DNA of 56,031 nucleotides, taken from a virus (taxonomy: Duplodnaviria; Caudoviricetes). Each line of letters starts with the position of its first letter. The stretch's first letter is position 1. The stretch covers positions 1 through 56,031 of IMG/VR virus record IMGVR_UViG_3300046837_000115; one strand, given 5' to 3'. The notes beneath the pieces were generated by a model. The model was given only the letters and a program-made list of their open reading frames with translations, made no database searches and had not been told where the DNA came from. Position numbers and translations under genes: made by a program. Positions 1,466 to 48,577 of this stretch are shown here, piece after piece.

Positions 1466-1894
1466 ATGGCGACGCAAAAGGTGGGGTTCCCGGTCACCCC
1501 CGGTGCAGGAGCGACCCTCGCCGCCGAGACCGACTTCAGCGGCGTGAAGGTGCCTGTCCATTTCGCTCACCAGGCGAGGACTGTCCCCGTCTATGGCGGG
1601 AACGCGAGCTTCCATGTCGGCACGTTGGGTGTGGCGTCTTCGAAGGATCTGCTGGCGATGGTGCCCGGCGGGACATCAACCCCGTCCGCGAACTTCCTCC
1701 GCGTCTACGTCCCCGCCGGGGGCCAGGCGGCGTTCTGGTCGAACGGGCTCGATCCCGTGGTGCAGACGGGGGCGCCGCAGATCAGCGGCGACTCGTACTA
1801 CGACTTCCCGAACGTGCTCGAACTGACGCACCTGTACGCGGTCGGGGTGTCGACGGCATGCCCGGTCGCGCTGCAGTGGGAAAAGACCGGGTAG
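1466..1894 (+). CDS. Hypothetical beta-rich virion protein
   Basis: 142-aa ORF tightly packed in the structural operon. Confidence 0.65.
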   Translation: MATQKVGFPVTPGAGATLAAETDFSGVKVPVHFAHQARTVPVYGGNASFHVGTLGVASSKDLLAMVPGGTSTPSANFLRVYVPAGGQAAFWSNGLDPVVQTGAPQISGDSYYDFPNVLELTHLYAVGVSTACPVALQWEKTG

Positions 1895-1895
1895 G

Positions 1896-3275
1896 GTGCA
1901 CGGCCGCAGCCACCTCGTCCGTATCGTCGGCACGCTGTTCGTGCTCGGCGCCCTCTCCGGCGGCATCTACCAGGGCGTGGCGTCGACCGGCGGCAGCTCG
2001 CCTCCTCCGACTGGAACAGCGAACCTCTGGGTCGACGGGAACGGCGGCACCTGCACCCGCCAATCGACCGCCGGGGCCTACGTCGACGCTGCAGCGTGCT
2101 CGTCCCTCCCCGCCGCCTACACGGCAGCCAACGCAGGCGACCTTGTTCTGGTCAAGTGCGGGACGTACGGTCAGCAGGTGTTCACCACGAACAAGACATC
2201 CGGCGCGAACGTCGTGTTCCAGGCCGAGACGACGCAATGTGCGACGTTGGGGTCGGTTCAGTTCACCGACGGCGGCGACCGTTCCACCGTTCAAAACTTC
2301 GTCATCAGCGACGGCTTCTACGCCGTCCTGAACGACAACAACAGCCGTAGCTCGTCGTTCGTCACGATCAATAACAACATCATCGACCCCGGTGTGGAGG
2401 CGCGCCACCAGGTCATCCTCGTTAAGAGCGCGCAGGACTGGGTGATCTCGAACAACACGATCGGCCCGGTCTGCTGCGGCACCGGCACCGACAGCCCTGA
2501 GGGGATCAGGATCGTCCCGCAAAGCAACAACGTGACGATCTCGAACAACCTGATCCAGTACGTGAGTCGCGACTGCGGATATTGGCCTAGCTCCGGCTGG
2601 GGCTCCTGCCCAGGCACGACGTGCAACCCGGCCTGCCACACCGACGGGATCCACATATGGGGCTTGACGAACGGCCACATCATCGGGAACCGCATCTACG
2701 CGGACGACTGCCAAGGGATCTACATCGAGCATCCAGGTAACGAGACGTTGGGTCCGATCGACGTGATCGACAACGCCGTCGGCCCGTTGGCGGAGAGCTG
2801 CGGCAGCGCCGGGATCAAGATCCACGCCGACAACGCGACCGTTCAGGGGACGTGGACTATTGCGTTCAACAGCGGGGCGGAAGCATTAGAGATCGGGTCG
2901 TTCTCGGGATGCTCCCCCTGCACGTTCAACCTCATCGGTAACTACATGCCTCTGTTCACACTGGACTCCGGCGGCAACGACGCCGGGTGCAACCCTCCGA
3001 ACGTGGCTGTCAACTACTCGTACAACGTGTGGACGTTCGTGAACGGCGGAACGAACACGGCGTGCGGGTCGCACGACATCTACACCGGCGCGGGAGGGTC
3101 GTTCGTGAACTCGACAGGGGCGCCCAACCTGGGCGTCGACCTCCACACGACCGGCTCCGTGTCGGCAGACAACTACGTCCCGACAGGGATCTGCACCCCG
3201 GTCGCCCCCGCTGACTTCGACGGCCAGGTCAGGCCGATCGGGGCCGCGTGCGACGCCGGGGCGGACGAGCGCTAA
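1896..3275 (+). CDS. Right-handed beta-helix (pectin lyase-like) protein with N-terminal signal/TM segment
   Basis: Hydrophobic N-terminus; repeated ISNN.I and GI.I beta-helix rungs; C-terminal DFDGQVRP.GAACDAGADE (choice-of-anchor Q-like); Cys-rich. Confidence 0.75.
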   Translation: MHGRSHLVRIVGTLFVLGALSGGIYQGVASTGGSSPPPTGTANLWVDGNGGTCTRQSTAGAYVDAAACSSLPAAYTAANAGDLVLVKCGTYGQQVFTTNKTSGANVVFQAETTQCATLGSVQFTDGGDRSTVQNFVISDGFYAVLNDNNSRSSSFVTINNNIIDPGVEARHQVILVKSAQDWVISNNTIGPVCCGTGTDSPEGIRIVPQSNNVTISNNLIQYVSRDCGYWPSSGWGSCPGTTCNPACHTDGIHIWGLTNGHIIGNRIYADDCQGIYIEHPGNETLGPIDVIDNAVGPLAESCGSAGIKIHADNATVQGTWTIAFNSGAEALEIGSFSGCSPCTFNLIGNYMPLFTLDSGGNDAGCNPPNVAVNYSYNVWTFVNGGTNTACGSHDIYTGAGGSFVNSTGAPNLGVDLHTTGSVSADNYVPTGICTPVAPADFDGQVRPIGAACDAGADER

Positions 3276-3875
3276 ATGGCGTTCCCGACCACCTCCGTCC
3301 TCGACCAGTTCACCCGCGCGAACGGCGACCCTGGAGCGAACTGGAACGGTCCGTCGTTCGGCGACGCGAACAAGCTGACGATCTTCTCGAACCAGATCGA
3401 GAGCGCGGCGGCGGCGTTCGGCTCGGAGTGCTGGGTAGCATCGACGTTCGGGCCGGGGATCGAGGTGTACGCCGACCTCGCCTCGGCGATCTCGGGCGGC
3501 GGCTCTGTCCGGCTTCTCATCCTCGACTCGCCGACGAGCGGCACCGCCAACGGCTACTACCTCGTCGCCGACTCGGGCAACAACTTCAACCTAGCGAAGT
3601 CAGTCTCCGGCTCGGGGTCGACGATCCAGACCGGGACGCAGGCTGTCGCGTCCGGCGACTCGTTCGGCTTGCAGTGGATCGGCACCACCGTCGCGGGCTG
3701 GTACAAGGCGGCGGCCGGGGCGTGGACGCAAATCGTGTCTATCGTCGATGCGTCGGTTGCGAACGCGGCCGGTTTCTACATCGGGATCGAGCTGTCGACC
3801 AACATCGGCGGCAACCTCCTCGACAACTTCGGCGGCGGCACCGCCGTCACGATGAAGACGGGGGCGTTCCAGTGA
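3276..3875 (+). CDS. Concanavalin/lectin-like virion protein
   Basis: D.FTRANG..GANW start, NGYYL, DNFGGG beta-sandwich pattern; ends TGAFQ. Confidence 0.6.
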   Translation: MAFPTTSVLDQFTRANGDPGANWNGPSFGDANKLTIFSNQIESAAAAFGSECWVASTFGPGIEVYADLASAISGGGSVRLLILDSPTSGTANGYYLVADSGNNFNLAKSVSGSGSTIQTGTQAVASGDSFGLQWIGTTVAGWYKAAAGAWTQIVSIVDASVANAAGFYIGIELSTNIGGNLLDNFGGGTAVTMKTGAFQ

Positions 3876-4312
3876 CCGCGAATTTCGGGTGGCCCCAGCC
3901 TGCGGCGCACGCTGACGGGTTGCAGCCCGCCCTGAACGCCATGATCCGCGACCTCGACGCGATGGTCCATAGCGTCGCCACGTTCGGCACGGCTGGCGCC
4001 CTCACAACCCTGGTCGGGGTCGGCAGGTTCCTGTTCCCTGCGGCGGCAAGGATCATCAACGTCACGTTGGCGGTGGATACTGCCCCGACGGGGGCGTCGA
4101 TCATCTGTGACGTGAACAAGAACGGGACGACGGTGTTCACGACGCAGGCGAACCGGCCGTCGATCGCCGCAGCCGCTAACGCGTCGGCGGCTGCCGTCCC
4201 GAACGTGACAGCCATCGCCCTCGGCGACTACCTGACCGTCGACATCGACCAGGTCGGTTCGACCATCGCCGGCGCCGATCTTGTCGTCCAGGTGTATTAC
4301 GTGTTCGCGTGA
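3872..4312 (+). CDS. Phage fibre/decoration domain protein
   Basis: GTG overlaps the upstream TGA; TAPTGASIICDVNKNGTTVF...GDYLTVDIDQVGSTIAGADL is a conserved phage structural motif. Confidence 0.7.
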   Translation: MTANFGWPQPAAHADGLQPALNAMIRDLDAMVHSVATFGTAGALTTLVGVGRFLFPAAARIINVTLAVDTAPTGASIICDVNKNGTTVFTTQANRPSIAAAANASAAAVPNVTAIALGDYLTVDIDQVGSTIAGADLVVQVYYVFA

Positions 4313-7300
4313 CGTTCCCGCTCGGAACAGCCCCATCGTACTACGCCACCTGCTCGTTCCCGAATGCGAGGCACGGAATCTTCTACGTTGGCGACAGCGT
4401 CACCATCACCTTGAGCCAGTCCACGCCCACCGCGTATTACGTGAAGGACTACTACGGCACCACCGTCTCGAGCGGCAGCACGTCAGGGACGACCTGCACC
4501 CCTACCCCGCCTGGTGGTGGCTGGCTTCCCGGCTGGTACCGGATCTACTTCACCGGGGCGAACACCGACGCCGTCTACGGCCCGTCGTATGGAGCGACGA
4601 ACTTTTGTGTCATCCGTGCCAACAGTCACTTCCCTACGTTGCCGAGTCCGTCTGTGAAGGGGAACGGGTCGCCAGGTCATCATGGCGTTCCGCCAGATTT
4701 GATTACACGTGGTTGTATGGGAATGGCGACAGCTCGGCTGAGTATCGTGCCTATGCCTGACCCCAATAGTGGCACAGCCGACCGTCTGTCTGACATAGCG
4801 TTGGATGCACCACTCGCAACTACTTGGTGGACGCAGCCACCCGACAATGATACGTGGGAACAGGGTCGCTCGCGGTATTTGTGGGTGGCGTTCTCCAACC
4901 AGGCGTATGACAGGCTTACGGCCGGGGGTACTGTTTCTTTCTACCCGAAGGACGAGACACAGGTGGCGCATGCCGATAAGATTTTTGTGTCAACGTCTGC
5001 GGGAACAGTTAGCGGCGACAAGTATGTTGTCTACTATCCGGACGCTTCTACGGTTGTTGAGACGTATGACAATCAGGCGGACGCGGTAGCTGCGGCGGCT
5101 GTGATCAACGCGGCGTCTGCTTATATTTGGATGTTCGGCCCAAGCGGGCGTCCAAGTTACATAACTGCGACCGCAATCGGTAACGCCTACTACACAGGTG
5201 TAAAGCTGTGCTCATCCACCTTGTTCCCGCTGGGCATCCCGTATTACGAGGGGCCGATTAACGAGCCAGGGATAGGTAGATACCTTGGGCAGCAGATGCG
5301 TATGTTCCGTGCCGCCGTGAAAGCGGGCAACCCTGACGCCCAGGTGATCGGGCCGTGCCCTGTTGACATCACTAATCCAGCGTGGAGCAATTTCTTCATC
5401 TCTGGCGGGCTTAACTACATAGATGCACTCTCGTTCCATGACTACAACACTGCCGTTTGTGGCGACCTAAACCAGGGCCGCACACAGATTGAGGCGTTCC
5501 TGGCGCTGTTGGCTGCGAACGGATGGACAGGTCCGCTATGGCAGACGGAGGCGCAGAGCGCGATGACTTGCGTGTATGGCGTTCATCATCCGCGCCGCGC
5601 CCGGACTTGCATGCTGCACATGCTGTTGTGGGAGCAGTACGGTATACCGCGAGAACGGAACTGCTACTGGTACGACGTCTCGATCGGGTTTTGGGGATTC
5701 CCGGTGTGGGCGTGGAATGGCGACGAAAGTTCTCAGCCTCAGGTGCCGATGTACCGGACACTGACGGAGGAAACATTCAATATGCCGCACCATCATCGGG
5801 TGTATTTCGGTAGCCCTGCCGCAGACGCGATCTTCCTCGGCAGCGTCTACGGGAGTTCCACTACACTCGGCCCGTCTACCTTGGTGCTGATCTCTGCTAG
5901 CCATATCCCCGGCGCTACCGTCACGATCTCAGTAGCGGGCACCACCTCGCCGCTGACGGTCGTGGACGCTTTCGGGAACACATCGACGGTCACGATCTCG
6001 TCCGGGCTGGCCGTCATCCCTGTGGATGACGTCCCCACTTACGTGCGCCTGCCTGCCGGCGTCACCGTCACTGTCAGCTCGGTACTCGATTGGGGCACGT
6101 CTCCGCATCCGAACGTGGCTGCACTCGGCGCCGCAACCCTCGGCGGTGCAGCCACTCCCGACATCAACGACGGACAGTTCCTCAATCTGTATGCCGCCTA
6201 TCCGGGCGGCATCGGGATCGCGTACTCGCCGGTCACCGTCCCAGACGACATCGCCATCGCGTTTGATCAGGCGGTCACTGTTGACCGCGTCATCATCTGG
6301 TGTGGCCCCTGCTGGCAGTCGATGGGCGTCCTCGTCGATTTTGACATCGACACGTCGAGCGACGGGGTGACGTGGACGACCCGCACGACGGTCACGAAGA
6401 CGACGCCGAGCTCGTTCAACCACGGAACTAGTTCGACCAACGCTGGTTGCAAGCAGGAGACGTACAGCGACGAGCAGTGGATCTTTCCGGTCACGTTGCC
6501 GTCTCCAGTGTCATGCCAGTACATCCGCGCGCATGTGCGGGCGACGAGTTATGGAGGGGAGCCGGACGCAGCGGCGGTTGCTGCCGGCGGCCAAGGAAGG
6601 AATGAACAACGTGTCGCCGTCGAGGAGATGATGGTGATGTCGTCGACGGTGCCCACTCTGCCAGGCCAGTACGACACGGAAGTGTTGGCTGACAGTCCGA
6701 ACGGCTACTGGAAACTCGCGGAGGCGTCCGGGGCGACTGCCGTGGGTCAGGTCAATTCACCAGCACTTGACGGTGTGTACTCAGCAACATGCGTTCTAGG
6801 CGTGCCCGGCCCATTGAGCAGCTCCGCCACCGCTGTATCGCTGCCGAACGCATCCCCGATCGCCGACATCCAGATTCCGAACAACTCCCTCCTCAACCTT
6901 GGGGCCACAGACGTGCTTACCGTCGAGTGCTGGTTTAAGCCTCCCCCGACGATTTCGTCGACGCGGACTATCGTTGAGCGCGGGTCGGGACGGTGGGGCA
7001 TCAGCCTGCTCTCCACCGGATTCGTTCAGTTCGCGAAGCCTGGCGTGGCGGGCATTGTTACTTCTACTGTCGCCTGCTCGAGCGGCTGGAACCATGTAGT
7101 CGCTACCAAGAGCGGCGCCGACATCCACATCTACCTTAACGGCGTCGACGTGTCCGGGACGGTAACCAACACGGCGCTCACCGACGGGTCGGGAGTGTTC
7201 TATATCGGCGACAACGCGGGTGCGTCAACGTTCGCTGACGGACAAGTCGCGTGCGTCGCCCTATACCCGACCGCGCTTACGGCCGCCCGTGTATTGGCGC

Positions 7301-44597: not shown

Positions 44598-45161
44598 ATG
44601 CGGGCAGGTATCACGCTGGTGTGCGCCCTCGCCATGTGTTCGTTGGCGGGGCCAGGTGAAGCGCAGACCATGAAACCACCGAGCAGGGCGCCGCATTCCG
44701 CGGCGTTCTACACGAACACGGTGCCGCGTCATTCGGCCCGGTATCTGACCGCGGCCAAGCTCGCTCGCGGGCTGCGCGGGCTGTGCTCTCGTGGCTCTGG
44801 GGGGTGTGCTCTGGCCGGTCAGGCGTTTGTGATCGAGCAGGCCGGTTGGGAGACGCATACGTCGCCGGGCGCGATGGTCGGCGCCAGCTTCACGGAGAGC
44901 AGCGGGGGTGACGCTGCTTGTGGTGGGAACCCGAAGAACATCTGGGGGTTGTCGTCGTGCGGATCAGGCTGGTACGTGCCTTACTTCCGCACGTGGCATC
45001 AAGCGTTCGTGTTCTTCGCCCGGTTTCTGCACCGTCAATGGCCGGGCGCCAGAACCGTCTACGATTTCCCTGGCTATTCCGCGTGTGATTCGTGCTGGGG
45101 GCCGAGAACAGCACTATGGGCGTCGCGTCTCGGATTCGGCCCGGGGCTGCGGTACCCGTGA
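44598..45161 (+). CDS. Secreted lysozyme-like (glucosaminidase-like) protein
   Basis: GGAGG RBS; signal peptide; ESSGG....N.WG....F..W motif. Confidence 0.55.
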   Translation: MRAGITLVCALAMCSLAGPGEAQTMKPPSRAPHSAAFYTNTVPRHSARYLTAAKLARGLRGLCSRGSGGCALAGQAFVIEQAGWETHTSPGAMVGASFTESSGGDAACGGNPKNIWGLSSCGSGWYVPYFRTWHQAFVFFARFLHRQWPGARTVYDFPGYSACDSCWGPRTALWASRLGFGPGLRYP

Positions 45162-45220
45162 CGTGCTCGGCCTGCCGCCGGTTCCGTCCCTGCCTCCGAT
45201 GCCTCGGGCTGCTGCCGTGA
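45158..45220 (+). CDS. 20-aa CxxC-CxxC peptide coupling adjacent genes
   Basis: MTCSACRRFRPCLRCLGLLP; GTGA overlaps at both ends. Confidence 0.35.
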   Translation: MTCSACRRFRPCLRCLGLLP

Positions 45221-47553
45221 TCTACCTGGCGGACCCGGACGTGACGATCCACCAGGGCGACGCCCTGGATGTGCTGGCCGCGATGCCGGACGGGTCGGTG
45301 CATTGTTGCGTGACGTCTCCGCCGTACTGGGGTTTGCGTGATTACGGGACGGGAGCGTGGGAGGGCGGCGACGAAGGCTGCGACCACGCGAAGCCAACGA
45401 CGACCTACAACCACGGCTTTAACGAGCGGTGGGGCCAGGGCGGCGGACAGCTGAAGCAGGAGAAGAAGTCGGAGGGCCAGTACGCGCAGGAGTGCCCGAA
45501 GTGCGGCGCCCGCCGTGTCGACCAACAACTCGGCCTCGAGGCCACCCCGGACGAGTACGTGGCCCGGATGGTCGAAGTGTTCCGCGAGGTGCGCCGCGTG
45601 CTGCGGGCGGACGGGACGTTGTGGCTCAACATCGGCGACAGTTACGCGCAGGGGCCATCCGGCAGCCCAGGCCCGACAGGTTTAGAGGGCCGGTCGCAGG
45701 ATTCGACACGCGTGCACGTCTCGAAACTTGGAAATGGGCTCAAGCAGAAGGATCTCGTCGGCATCCCCTGGCGGCTCGCGTTCGCCCTCCAGGCAGACGG
45801 CTGGTATTTGCGCTCGGACATCATCTGGGCGAAACCGAACCCGATGCCCGAGAGCGTGACGGACAGGCCGACCAAAGCCCATGAGTACGTGTTCCTACTC
45901 AGCAAGTCGCCGCGGTACTTCTTTGACGCTGATGCCATTCGTGAGCCGCACAAAGAACCCTGGCGCGGACAGGGCGAGGCGGAGAAGAACAACTGGTCGG
46001 TAAATGGCGAAAGGGGCAGCCACGACACCGTGCGCCAGTACAACCCTGCTGGCCGCAACGTCCGTTCAGTGTGGGAGATAGAGCAGACGGGCCGCGAGCG
46101 AGGCGGTACCAAGCACACGCTCATCGAGGACTACTTCAACGACATCTACACCGAGGAGCAGGCGTACTGGCTCGGCTTCCTCTACGCAGACGGCTACCTC
46201 GGACGCCGACACGTCGATCTACAACTCGCAGCGAAGGACGCGGGACACGTTGAGCGGTTCCAGCGTGCTCTCGGTTCAAGTCGTGAGGTCACGATCTCGA
46301 GAGATGGCAGGGCGCGCTTTATCGCCTCATCGCTTCGGATGGCGAATGATCTCGGCCATCTTGGGATGCGCGAGCGCAGCACCATGCCGATCCTCAATGG
46401 CGAACTGACCCGGCACTTTGTCCGCGGCGTGTTCGATGGCGACGGCAGCGCATGGAGCTACCTGCCCGCCGGACGAACCAAGAGACGCTACGGCGCCGCG
46501 TTCCTCGGCAGCCAAGGCCTCCTCGATGAGATCCGGGAAGAACTCGGCCTGCGCGGCAAGCCCAAGTTTTCGCGTGGGATTCATCGCCTGTCGGTTGCTG
46601 CAGGAGATGATATTGCTCGCCTCTACGCCTATCTCTACGACGGGGCCACGGTGTGGCTCGAGCGGAAGCGTGTCGAGTTCCCACAGGCGCAGAGCATCGC
46701 GCCGGCCACATGGAGCATCGCCACACAGCCGTACCCGGAGGCGCATTTCGCCACGTTCCCGGAGGAACTCGTCAGGCGGTGCGTGCTGGCGGGTTGCCCT
46801 GAGTTTGTCTGCAGCGAGTGTTATACTCCGTGTGTAAATGCCGAAGCCACCGAGTCTGATTCCGTACAAGCGGCACTGCAACGTATGCGGCCGGTACTAC
46901 GAGGGTCGGGGAAAGATGTTTTGCAGCCGGTCTTGTCAGACGATTGCGGCAAACCGAGCGCGCGGGAAGAAGCAGCGCCCGCCGTGCCGGAACTGTGGGA
47001 AGCCCGTCAAGACGATGAGGCACAAGACTTGTTCGACCAAGTGCGCCGGCCAGTGGGCAACCAAGACGGGGGCGAATCGTCACCCATTCCCGCCCGAGCG
47101 CCGAGCGGCGAACTGGAAGGGCGGCAGGGTGATCGACGTGAGCGGCTACGTGCGGGTCTACAGTCGCCAGAAGCGTCGATACCTGCTCGAACACCGAGTG
47201 GTGATGGAGCAGAGGCTAGGGCGGTCGCTGACGCGGGGCGAGTTCGTCCATCATCGCAACGGGATCAAGACGGACAACCGGCCCGAGAACTTGGAGCTGA
47301 TGACGCGGAATCCGCATCGGGGAACGGTGGAGTGTCCCCACTGCGGCGAGCGGTTCGCGATTCGCTGAGCCCCTGCTGTGGCGCGCCGCTGAGCCCAGGG
47401 ATCGTCCTAGACCCGTTCATCGGCAGTGGCACCACCGGCCTGGTAGCACGCAAACACGGCCGCCACGCGATCGGCATCGAGCTGAACGCCGACTACTGCG
47501 AGTTGGCGTCGAGACGGTTGGCGCAACAGTCGCTGTTGACGGAGCTGGCGTGA
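45217..47553 (+). CDS. N4/N6 DNA methyltransferase (beta class) with two large insertions
   Basis: VTSPPYWGLRDY, WLNIGDSY, IIWAKPNPMPESV.DR, HFATFP, VLDPFIGSGTT, GIELN. Confidence 0.88.
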   Translation: MIYLADPDVTIHQGDALDVLAAMPDGSVHCCVTSPPYWGLRDYGTGAWEGGDEGCDHAKPTTTYNHGFNERWGQGGGQLKQEKKSEGQYAQECPKCGARRVDQQLGLEATPDEYVARMVEVFREVRRVLRADGTLWLNIGDSYAQGPSGSPGPTGLEGRSQDSTRVHVSKLGNGLKQKDLVGIPWRLAFALQADGWYLRSDIIWAKPNPMPESVTDRPTKAHEYVFLLSKSPRYFFDADAIREPHKEPWRGQGEAEKNNWSVNGERGSHDTVRQYNPAGRNVRSVWEIEQTGRERGGTKHTLIEDYFNDIYTEEQAYWLGFLYADGYLGRRHVDLQLAAKDAGHVERFQRALGSSREVTISRDGRARFIASSLRMANDLGHLGMRERSTMPILNGELTRHFVRGVFDGDGSAWSYLPAGRTKRRYGAAFLGSQGLLDEIREELGLRGKPKFSRGIHRLSVAAGDDIARLYAYLYDGATVWLERKRVEFPQAQSIAPATWSIATQPYPEAHFATFPEELVRRCVLAGCPEFVCSECYTPCVNAEATESDSVQAALQRMRPVLRGSGKDVLQPVLSDDCGKPSAREEAAPAVPELWEARQDDEAQDLFDQVRRPVGNQDGGESSPIPARAPSGELEGRQGDRRERLRAGLQSPEASIPARTPSGDGAEARAVADAGRVRPSSQRDQDGQPARELGADDAESASGNGGVSPLRRAVRDSLSPCCGAPLSPGIVLDPFIGSGTTGLVARKHGRHAIGIELNADYCELASRRLAQQSLLTELA
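46081..46719 (+). mobile_element. In-frame two-motif LAGLIDADG endonuclease domain inserted in the methyltransferase
   Basis: AYWLGFLYADG and HFVRGVFDGDG motifs between SVWEI and WSIATQPY. Confidence 0.75.
46838..47368 (+). CDS. HNH endonuclease nested in the +1 frame within the methyltransferase gene
   Basis: Two CxxC..CS..C knuckles, NWKGGR, GYV, EHRVVME..LGR.L...E.VHH.NG.K.DNR.ENLEL; TGTTATACT just upstream. Confidence 0.85.
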   Translation: MPKPPSLIPYKRHCNVCGRYYEGRGKMFCSRSCQTIAANRARGKKQRPPCRNCGKPVKTMRHKTCSTKCAGQWATKTGANRHPFPPERRAANWKGGRVIDVSGYVRVYSRQKRRYLLEHRVVMEQRLGRSLTRGEFVHHRNGIKTDNRPENLELMTRNPHRGTVECPHCGERFAIR

Positions 47554-47783
47554 GTCATCACCCGGACGGCTGGATCTGCGCCCGAGGCCACTGGGTCCCG
47601 CCCGGCGTCACTCACTGCACCGCCTGCCGGTGGCGCACCGAGCGTGACTCGTGTGATTGCGGCGGGTTGAAGTGGAAGACGTCGACCAGGTGCCGGGATT
47701 GCGACACGGACCGGAAGCGGGCGGCACCCGTGCCCCGATCTCCGGTGGCGCGTGTGACCTCTACCCAGAAGGAGGAGTTGTGA
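47550..47783 (+). CDS. Cys-rich hypothetical protein
   Basis: Several Cys pairs; GTGA coupling at both ends. Confidence 0.55.
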   Translation: MSHHPDGWICARGHWVPPGVTHCTACRWRTERDSCDCGGLKWKTSTRCRDCDTDRKRAAPVPRSPVARVTSTQKEEL

Positions 47784-48577
47784 CGGTAACTCTTGACGCG
47801 ACCCGTGACCTGATCGCGGGCATGAACGCGCAGAGCGCGCGTTGGCTGGTGGACTACTACTACGCGGTGCAGGACTTCCGCATCCAGGCGCAGGGGCAGC
47901 TGCGCGCGATCGTGCAAGAGGCCGACGAAGGAACATTCCTGATCGGCGAGCAGCTCCTCGACGACACGTCTGAGATCGAAAAGAGAATCAGGAAGGCGCT
48001 GGACAAGTACACGGATGAGGTGGTACCGACGGTGTGGGCGAAGTCGATCCACGGCATCGGGCCTGTCCTCGCAGCCGGTCTCGCGGCCCATATCGACATC
48101 GAGAAGGCACCGACGGTCGGCCATATCTGGCGGTTCGCCGGGCTCGACCCGACGGTGAAGTGGGGGAAGGGCGAGAAGAGGCCGTGGAACGCGTCGCTGA
48201 AGGTGCTGTGCTGGAAGATCGGCGACTCCTTCGTGAAGGTCAGCGGGAAAGACACCGACGTGTACGGGAAGGTTTATCGGGCCAGGAAGGAGCAGGAGAT
48301 ACGGAAGAACGAGGCAGGCGACTTCGCCGACCAGGCCGCGGCCGCCCTCGCCGAACGGAAGTTCAAAGTGTCCGATACCCGCAAGGCGTACGAGGCAGGT
48401 CGGCTACCGGACGGCAGGATCGACCTGCGCGCCCGCCGGTACGCCGTCAAGCTGTTCCTCGCCCACTACCACCACGTCGCATACGAGGATCACTACGGCG
48501 AACCCCCGCCGAAACCGTACGCCCTCACCCACCTCGACCACGCCCACTTCATCGCACCACCAAACTGGCCGCTGTAG
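47780..48577 (+). CDS. tasA: IS110/Nop-like RNA-binding protein without a nuclease domain (TasA-like)
   Basis: AGGAGGAG RBS; 265 aa; coiled coil then SIHGIGPVLAAGL...IWRFAGLDP...WNASLKVLCW; no DEDD RuvC or HNH motif; array directly downstream. Confidence 0.8.
   Translation: MTVTLDATRDLIAGMNAQSARWLVDYYYAVQDFRIQAQGQLRAIVQEADEGTFLIGEQLLDDTSEIEKRIRKALDKYTDEVVPTVWAKSIHGIGPVLAAGLAAHIDIEKAPTVGHIWRFAGLDPTVKWGKGEKRPWNASLKVLCWKIGDSFVKVSGKDTDVYGKVYRARKEQEIRKNEAGDFADQAAAALAERKFKVSDTRKAYEAGRLPDGRIDLRARRYAVKLFLAHYHHVAYEDHYGEPPPKPYALTHLDHAHFIAPPNWPL

Follow-up and report, generated by a model that had tools for sequence, protein, structure and literature searches.

An HNH endonuclease gene nested out of frame before motif I of a phage DNA methyltransferase gene: a probable ShiLan-type homing cassette

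In the usual view, homing endonucleases survive within genes as passengers of introns or inteins. In this study, we analyzed a virus genome (Duplodnaviria; Caudoviricetes; IMG/VR record IMGVR_UViG_3300046837_000115), whose complete record of 56,031 bp (65.5% GC) is called the window here, and found a complete HNH endonuclease gene nested in another frame of an uninterrupted DNA methyltransferase (methylase) gene. Sequence comparisons make it highly probable that the nested gene is a ShiLan-type "hidden" homing-endonuclease cassette, in which an HNH_3 gene lies out of frame in a beta-class methylase and the host gene is read through. The evidence consists of the nesting itself, the avoidance of stop codons in the methylase frame, purifying selection, a patchy distribution among related methylases, and the lack of a recognisable intron or intein. 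The ShiLan domain was described in February 2025 by Arsenault, Gosselin and Gogarten (PMC11855218) as an out-of-frame HNH in the mycobacteriophage DNA methylase gp65, with a stop-free host frame.

The outer open reading frame (ORF) covers positions 44908..47553 on the plus strand, 881 codons without a stop. Alignment to the methylase P0004 and other relatives places the most likely start at the ATG at 45199 (MPRAAAVIYL...), giving a coding sequence of 784 aa (45199..47553, plus strand) that matches Pfam N6_N4_Mtase (PF01555; E 9.9e-46, 156.9 bits) and spans two inserts uninterrupted, the nested HNH gene and an in-frame insert described below. The profile match, the order of the motifs (motif IV before motif I) and the methylase fold place the enzyme among the N4/N6 methyltransferases that we take to be the beta class. 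The catalytic SPPY (residues 40-43; 45316..45327, plus strand), presumably motif IV, has nearly invariant S40, P41 and P42 in an alignment of 104 sequences (A5). In the same alignment, D738, F740, G742, G744 and T745 are invariant within motif I, the AdoMet-binding loop VLDPFIGSGTT (47404..47436, plus strand), whose FxGxG corresponds to residues 740-744. An AlphaFold2 (AF2) model made with 104 sequences gave the methylase core a predicted local distance difference test (pLDDT) above 90, and Foldseek matched this core to CcrM, M.PvuII, M.RsrI and other beta-class enzymes (6pbd, 1boo and 1nw8 at E 3e-8 to 6e-7). The HNH insertion site is a surface turn directly before motif I.

The HNH gene encodes 176 aa from an ATG (46838..47368, plus strand) and lies wholly within the methylase ORF at a frame offset of 1, calculated as (46838-44908)%3, i.e. 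in the +1 frame. It matches Pfam HNH_3 (PF13392) with E 1.8e-12 and 47.1 bits (cut-off 24.8), and phrog_20891 "HNH endonuclease" with E 8e-26. Residues H138, H139, N147, N151 and H160 and four Cys pairs are invariant in alignment A6. The first-pass annotation had described a complete nested HNH gene and a stop-free methylase frame resuming with the SAM-binding motif. Both descriptions agree with the ORF coordinates and the two Pfam matches, and past the HNH gene the methylase frame resumes as ...SPCCGAPLSPGIVLDPFIGSGTT. An assembly error, which had been named as an outcome that would undo that description, is ruled out by independent contigs of three other runs, which match the junctions with 0 differences (X2 record 7, 46618-47778; X3 record 14, 46350-46932; X5 record 21, 46688-47192). 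The identical sequence of the phage locus (44900-47900) is present in contigs of several soil and rhizosphere runs (X2-X6) from different studies.

The base composition indicates which frame is coding over the insert. Upstream of the insert, GC at the three codon positions of the methylase frame is 0.66/0.49/0.82; the values change to 0.81/0.57/0.53 over 46838-47368 and are 0.62/0.55/0.84 downstream. The peak of GC at third positions (GC3) thus shifts to the third position of the HNH frame, which is therefore the coding frame over 46838-47368. The methylase-frame reading of the same DNA (46822..47373, plus strand), about 184 aa with 0 stops, is predicted to form a poorly ordered loop, with mean pLDDT values of 32-64 in 10-residue blocks of the AF2 model over residues 551-710. 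It is flanked in the methylase frame by a CxxC (CSEC; 46810..46821, plus strand) just upstream of the HNH gene and by Cys-Cys (47374..47379, plus strand) just past the HNH stop, so the GC3 shift and the two Cys pairs bear out the earlier view of this text as low in information and flanked by cysteines. The CxxC is present in all 9 sequences with an HNH at the pre-motif I site; the CC is invariant in the six sequences of alignment A2, and two further loci (L044 and L046) have CxxC in its place. These flanking cysteines may coordinate a metal and keep the two ends of the loop close to each other.

No phage record was matched by megablast of the locus. Scanning viral contigs with the HNH yielded 35 loci, and an alternate frame covered the HNH in only one of them (1/35), L005, whose HNH is 75% identical and lies at the same place in a 545-aa homologous methylase with an open host frame. 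A third phage copy of the same build, L042 (HNH ~55% identical), was found with the methylase-frame text. When genome contigs were scanned with an HNH alignment, 80 loci were retained, and over long stretches no identity exceeded 51%. In 7/80 the full length of the HNH is covered by an alternate sense frame, and four of these are PF01555 methylases: L044 and L046, with the HNH at the site used in the window, and L047 and L083, contigs of bacterial metagenome-assembled genomes (MAGs), with the HNH at the ShiLan site. A tblastn search of the methylase pieces against all 118 loci added two methylases with open frames and an antisense HNH at the ShiLan site, L057 (Woesearchaeota MAG contig, 2057-3781) and L092 (Nitrospira MAG contig, 1472-4438, minus strand). 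Methylase sequence was present in 14/118 loci fetched around HNH relatives and lay on both sides of the HNH in 8, six in sense (L005, L042, L044, L046, L047, L083) and two antisense (L057, L092). The host frame was unbroken over the HNH in 8/8, or in 7/7 without L042, whose query presupposes an open frame.

Other loci returned by these searches differ in layout. Three spanning frames were set aside as chance: those of L048 and L065 had no family match and no methylase, and the one in L084 extends a DAHP synthase ORF upstream and has no methylase either. In L043, found with the read-through text, the HNH stands beside a C5 methylase, and the apparent overlap is a spurious third-frame ORF rather than nesting. 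In L062 the methylase is represented only by a C-terminal piece, which lies downstream of the HNH. A metagenome scan with the HNH alignment, restricted to N-terminal patterns, gave one partial locus (L040, residues 10-49), which was not used. Free-standing HNH relatives are often found directly beside, not inside, PF01555 methylase genes (L010, L012, L027, L031, L078), a layout that recalls the Tiff81 and Sashimi arrangement described in PMC11855218. The L083 contig (Cloacimonadota, 41% GC) carries one 926-aa methylase ORF (56-2836) with two nested out-of-frame HNH_3 genes (1021-1479 and 2179-2637), and the L092 methylase holds further endonuclease-like ORFs at 732-1463 and 3567-4277 on the minus strand.

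At the protein level, we searched a protein collection with the L005 methylase and sorted the best 120 matches by the turn between HFATFP and VLDPF. Among these, 22 have an 18-aa turn (…AGCPEGGxVLDPF), 75 have a zinc-ribbon loop of 66-175 aa (CCPxCGxPW…GWxPSCxH or CPExVCxxCG…GWTDCGH), and 4 (P0002, P0003, P0022, P0037) have 217-218 aa of the same read-through text. The other 19, outside the motif patterns, are complete methylases with short or zinc-ribbon turns, and 0 are truncated. A phmmer search with the read-through text of the window against 1.84 billion representatives returned 6 proteins at E<=0.001, 4 of them at E<=1e-10, and the close lineage is therefore rare.

A methylase that is split or dead could also leave an open frame as a by-product of high GC, with the C-terminal piece a separate product or the gene a decaying pseudogene. 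We consider this explanation extremely unlikely. It draws on the base rate, since the same relative frame is open in 56 of 571 segments of 177 codons (9.8%) from 31 other genes of the window, where the other alternate frame is open in 7/571, and long spurious ORFs do occur in the window and in L043, L048, L065 and L084. We permuted synonymous codons within the HNH gene in 20,000 trials and counted stops in the methylase frame. The window had 0 stops compared to 3.8 expected (P=0.004, zero stops in 0.4% of the 20,000 permutations), none of the 20 T-ending codons of the HNH gene preceding AA, AG or GA, and the third frame had 9 stops compared to 6.9 expected. The test was calibrated on 44 control chunks of 177 codons from 30 other genes, in which observed/expected was 0.98, 5 chunks were stop-free and 1 reached P<=0.01.

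The same avoidance was found in the relatives. There were 0 stops in L005 (3.5 expected, P=0.011), L042 (3.9 expected, P=0.009), L046 (6.0 expected, P=0.00065) and L047 (3.1 expected, P=0.006), and the mycobacteriophage copy L001 gave P=0.034. In AT-richer genomes the expected numbers were 9.6 for L044 (40% GC), 8.0 for the antisense HNH of L057 (32% GC) and 8.7 for that of L092 (38% GC). All three had 0 stops, and 0/20,000 permutations were stop-free in each. The third frame at the pre-motif I site loci held 5-15 stops, about as expected, and other frames in the relatives held 7-19, as expected. HNH synonymous sites are saturated among the three phage copies in the window, L005 and L042 (dS 1.3-2.8), which are therefore close to independent trials, and their Fisher combination gave P = 5e-5. 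With the result of the window repeated in diverged copies and in genomes of 32-41% GC, chance is negligible.

Comparison of dN/dS in each frame, a check proposed in the first-pass annotation, separated the two readings. For the window versus L005 and L042, dN/dS was 0.16-0.31 in the HNH frame, 0.24-0.30 in the methylase N-domain and 0.21-0.40 in the methylase piece past the insert, compared to 1.0-2.0 (28-44% identity) in the methylase-frame text over the HNH. Purifying selection thus acts on the HNH and on both methylase parts, and the overlapped host-frame text is unconstrained. Selection on both parts, together with the intact catalytic motifs IV and I, speaks against a dead gene. For a gene in pieces we looked for two separately started ORFs and found no stop in the window and no second start in L005, where the methylase frame has no ATG, GTG or TTG from 150 nt upstream to 60 nt downstream of the HNH stop. 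The conserved tail of L005 can therefore be made only by translating through the insert, or after splicing.

If the HNH ORF belonged to an intron, whether of group I, group II or an unknown type, RNA splicing would remove the insert and the open frame would be irrelevant. HNH genes often ride in phage group I introns, according to section 3.5 of PMC11855218, and the part of the gene that received the insert is conserved. No ribozyme core was detected by the Rfam covariance models, with no family at threshold in 44800-47800 searched at E<=10 and a CRISPR repeat model (17.7 bits) as the only match. The HNH ORF fills the insert to within ~20 nt of each end, leaving no space for such a core, and the saturation of HNH synonymous sites is unfit for a conserved RNA fold. 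Furthermore, selection would not keep a spliced intron free of stops in the host frame, but all 8 flanked loci, including the two antisense ones, avoid them. We therefore regard splicing as very unlikely. An intein is not indicated either: Pfam found no Hint/intein domain in the ORF, the HNH is not encoded in the host frame, and the host-frame text shows no constraint. The verdict of no intron and no intein is one of negative evidence. Translational bypass was also rejected, the gap being 531 nt compared to the 50 nt bypassed in T4 gene 60.

We next consider how the HNH could be expressed. A TAA stop in the HNH frame (46835..46837, plus strand) lies directly before the ATG, a TAG is found at the aligned place in L005 and L042, and such a stop occurs 0-3 codons before the ATG in 5/5 loci of the pre-motif I site. 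The HNH must therefore start on its own, and a frameshift fusion of the methylase N-part to the HNH was rejected. As noted in the first-pass annotation, an extended -10-like sequence, TGTTATACT (46819..46827, plus strand), lies 10 nt before the HNH ATG. It consists of three rare T-ending methylase codons (TGT TAT ACT), and its pattern TGNTATRCT has a single occurrence when both strands of the window are counted (expected 0.33; 29/100 shuffles have at least one). At the aligned position L005 has TGTTATGCT, likewise of rare T-ending methylase codons.

Strong promoter-like sites also stand just before the nested ATG in four relatives. L042 has TTGACA-16-TATACT (11/12), the sole match in 2.1 kb, whose end lies 6 nt upstream of an ATG; in L044, TTGACT-17-TATAAT and then AAGAGG stand near the nested ATG; L083 has TTGACG-17-TATAAT followed by AAGGAG; and L047 has ATGAAA-16-TATAAT just before the ATG. 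The second nested HNH of L083 is preceded, 6 nt upstream, by a 12/12 TTGACA-16-TATAAT site with TG and looks leaderless. The idea of an internal -10 thus gains some support from these four loci; the window itself has no full -35/-10 match. Judged from these sites, the HNH is probably expressed from an internal promoter, with a leader that is short or missing.

To follow the distribution of the HNH, we removed the loop from 104 methylase cores and built a tree of them, leaving out 19/123 rows that did not fit the two motif patterns. An HNH is present in 7 rows, and at least 5 gains or losses are required to explain these, 4 of them forced by branches with support >=95; the HNH-bearing methylases are polyphyletic and scattered on the tree. 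The row nearest to the window, P0004 (75% identity), lacks an HNH, and its loop is a native zinc ribbon. The flanks, CxxC … CC or CxxC, are common to all sequences with an HNH at the pre-motif I site whatever the methylase backbone, which fits a cassette moving together with its flanks. The phylogeny suggests that this cassette homes.

The nested HNH could also be a gene that is now fixed and useful to the phage, for instance in assisting nicking or packaging or in working with the methylase, and no longer homing. Purifying selection on the HNH, its status as the only HNH copy in the complete 56-kb genome, and the non-homing phage roles of HNH proteins described in section 4.2 of PMC11855218 are compatible with such a role. 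The patchy distribution on the methylase tree and the nearest methylase without an HNH argue against it. Moreover, the cassette type has unrelated hosts, two insertion sites and either orientation, yet it lies inside PF01555 genes in every case, which is the pattern expected of a site-specific invader. On balance, we find a fixed gene improbable. The earlier proposal, in which a homing-type HNH leaves its host gene undisturbed through dual coding and not through splicing, is thus favoured by the comparative evidence, namely the 8/8 open frames, the selection on the methylase tail, the lack of an intron or intein, and polyphyly.

Several observations weigh against a read-through homing cassette. 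The raw chance of an open frame, about 10% at 65% GC, makes the window alone unconvincing, and L083, with 0 stops compared to 1.1 expected, gave P=0.23. A full sigma-70 match was found 0 times in the window and 0 times in L005, and neither has a Shine-Dalgarno sequence before the HNH ATG. In the AT-rich loci the totals of promoter-like sites are no higher than in shuffles (5 vs 5.4, 9 vs 6.2 and 3 vs 2.9), and therefore only the position of these sites is suggestive. The four proteins with read-through text came from a search that returns only uninterrupted ORFs and is biased in this respect. Some clustering of the HNH label persists on the tree, with 5/500 shuffles needing as few changes. No insert-free allele of the phage was seen in 4 DNA runs, with no joint across the HNH or the in-frame insert. 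Finally, the 989-aa host ORF of L092 stops at the insertion 732-1463, a different endonuclease ORF, ahead of the C-terminal piece 491-682. This insertion therefore splits the gene or is spliced, and read-through is not universal for all inserts.

Taken together, we propose the following course for the ShiLan-type cassette. An HNH_3 gene that carried, at the least, a -10-like start signal of its own would have been placed out of frame in the turn before motif I, the host gene being neither split nor spliced. Ribosomes would translate the HNH DNA in the methylase frame into a loop of ~180 aa, unconstrained, probably disordered and with Cys residues at both ends, and would continue into motif I to give a single 784-aa methylase. 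The sole constraint on the host frame would be the absence of stops, kept through synonymous codon choice in the HNH frame. The HNH would be made separately from its own ATG, probably on a short-leader or leaderless transcript from the internal -10-like site. It would presumably cut insert-free methylase alleles near the motif I codons, and repair would then copy the cassette along with its Cys-bearing flanks.

The arrangement is already published as a kind, its authors having independently arrived at the interpretation given here. For the ShiLan domain, PMC11855218 reports no signs of an intron or intein, predicts a loop and proposes leaderless or RBS-less initiation, and according to its section 4.4 site-specific cleavage or homing has not been demonstrated for ShiLan either. 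The window shares with ShiLan an HNH_3-type gene in an alternate frame of an unbroken PF01555 ORF, the lack of an intron or intein, a patchy, sporadic distribution and a predicted unstructured host-frame loop. We re-found the ShiLan type in Filuzino, Pollywog and MISSy, whose records annotate the methylase only, and also in the bacterial MAG contigs L047 and L083. In contrast, the methylase subfamilies differ (SPPYWGLRDYG in the window, DPPYELAFMGKKWD in ShiLan), as do the sites (the turn before motif I versus a KPSYEP...KP strand), the frames and starts (offset 1 with ATG versus offset 2 with GTG) and the flanks (Cys pairs versus an 11-aa duplication). The two HNH proteins are 38% identical over residues 41-160, and the window gene, unlike that of ShiLan, also holds an in-frame LAGLIDADG-type insert. 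Neither a shared site nor orthology to the ShiLan domain was found, and on these sequences the window element is of the same kind as ShiLan and of a different lineage. Stop selection, two sites, three frames and many host groups go somewhat beyond the published description, whose Results and Discussion show no stop-avoidance permutation test, no antisense form and no element at the pre-motif I site.

Other known systems share parts of this arrangement. The helicase-methylase gp60 of Pacc40 is reported as a second, unrelated out-of-frame insertion with a hidden HNH-like ORF, the HNH assignment being less certain (PMC11855218 section 3.6). As in the window, a phage methylase there has taken up an endonuclease gene out of frame and has kept its own frame open; host protein, site and endonuclease all differ, as judged by the published description. 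A 2025 genome announcement already annotates such a hidden gene (PMC12613952). Inteins with out-of-frame or antisense homing endonucleases have been described in a preprint (bioRxiv 10.1101/2025.01.02.630785), and like them the window carries an endonuclease in another frame of an insert whose host frame is open. Those inteins, as the preprint presents them, keep the Hint domain and are removed from the protein, whereas the window has no Hint domain and its host-frame text is unconstrained.

Endonucleases of other kinds of host gene offer a further comparison. The nrdA gene of Aeromonas phage Aeh1 is split by the free-standing mobE into two ORFs whose products assemble. The window is similar in having a free-standing HNH-family gene with its own start signals in a host gene, without an intron or intein, but its host frame is free of stops, and a restart codon is missing in L005. 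I-HmuI and I-PfoP3I are intron-encoded HNH homing enzymes that target conserved phage genes and need a self-splicing ribozyme; unlike these, the window insert has no detected ribozyme and no room for one.

The same methylase gene holds a second insert, a LAGLIDADG-type endonuclease of 213 aa in frame with the methylase (46081..46719, plus strand) between SVWEI and ATQPYPEAHF. It matches phrog_4645 "endonuclease" (E 3.9e-35) and shows ~30% identity by tblastn to phage endonucleases annotated LAGLIDADG or "mobile intron protein"; Pfam LAGLIDADG_3 gave only E 0.0094, under the cut-off. GC3 peaks in the methylase frame over this region, and the insert is missing from L005 and P0004. It has no Hint/intein domain and no room for an intron. 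The insert ends in ATWSI, echoing the upstream SVWEI, and both the alignment and AF2 take the downstream copy as the conserved strand. AF2 gave the insert low confidence, and its fold is not confirmed. A weak match to a colicin immunity protein in a search of PDB sequences (E 0.0037) was taken as chance. Other in-frame inserts of ~150-200 aa are found at two further sites in P0002, P0022 and P0089 (between ALQA and GWYLRS) and in P0116 (after LLSK); they carry LAGLIDADG-like motifs such as WLAATLDAEG, with weak Pfam support (E 0.15 in P0116).

Downstream of the methylase lies the gene that the first-pass annotation had called TasA-like and speculatively paired in trans with the nested HNH. Its 265-aa product (47780-48577) matches phrog_4285 "transposase" (E 2.7e-46) and Pfam Transposase_20 (E 6e-5), and a relative was found in 0/10 loci carrying a nested HNH, so the partnership is unsupported. 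The protein carries only the IS110-type Transposase_20 domain, and AAGGAGGAG forms a ribosome site upstream. A Cys-rich ORF of 77 aa (47550-47783) overlaps the start of this gene by GTGA.

A wider reading can be offered tentatively, and we hold it with some doubt. Nested HNH_3 cassettes in PF01555 methylases could form a widespread, purpose-built class of splice-free homing element, each a compact unit of a promoter, often positioned for a leaderless ATG, and an HNH ORF whose DNA is kept stop-free in the frame read by the host. Such a class would possibly include sense +1, sense +2 and antisense frames in phages, bacteria and archaea from 32% to 66% GC. It might also stack, as in the two HNH genes of L083 or in the window with its in-frame LAGLIDADG and out-of-frame HNH. 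Within such a class, the cassette-borne CxxC...CC/CxxC flanks may clasp the loop ends via a metal so that the methylase folds.

This locus adds to the recent evidence for a third route by which homing endonucleases persist, in which the host would translate the invader DNA in another frame as a harmless loop. The comparisons make this read-through reading quantitative, with stop avoidance over two sites, three relative frames, and phage, bacterial and archaeal records. For annotation, gene callers give one long methylase and miss the nested endonuclease, and overlapping-gene statistics gain real cases of dual coding. For protein engineering, the turn before motif I would be a place that tolerates insertions of ~180 aa.

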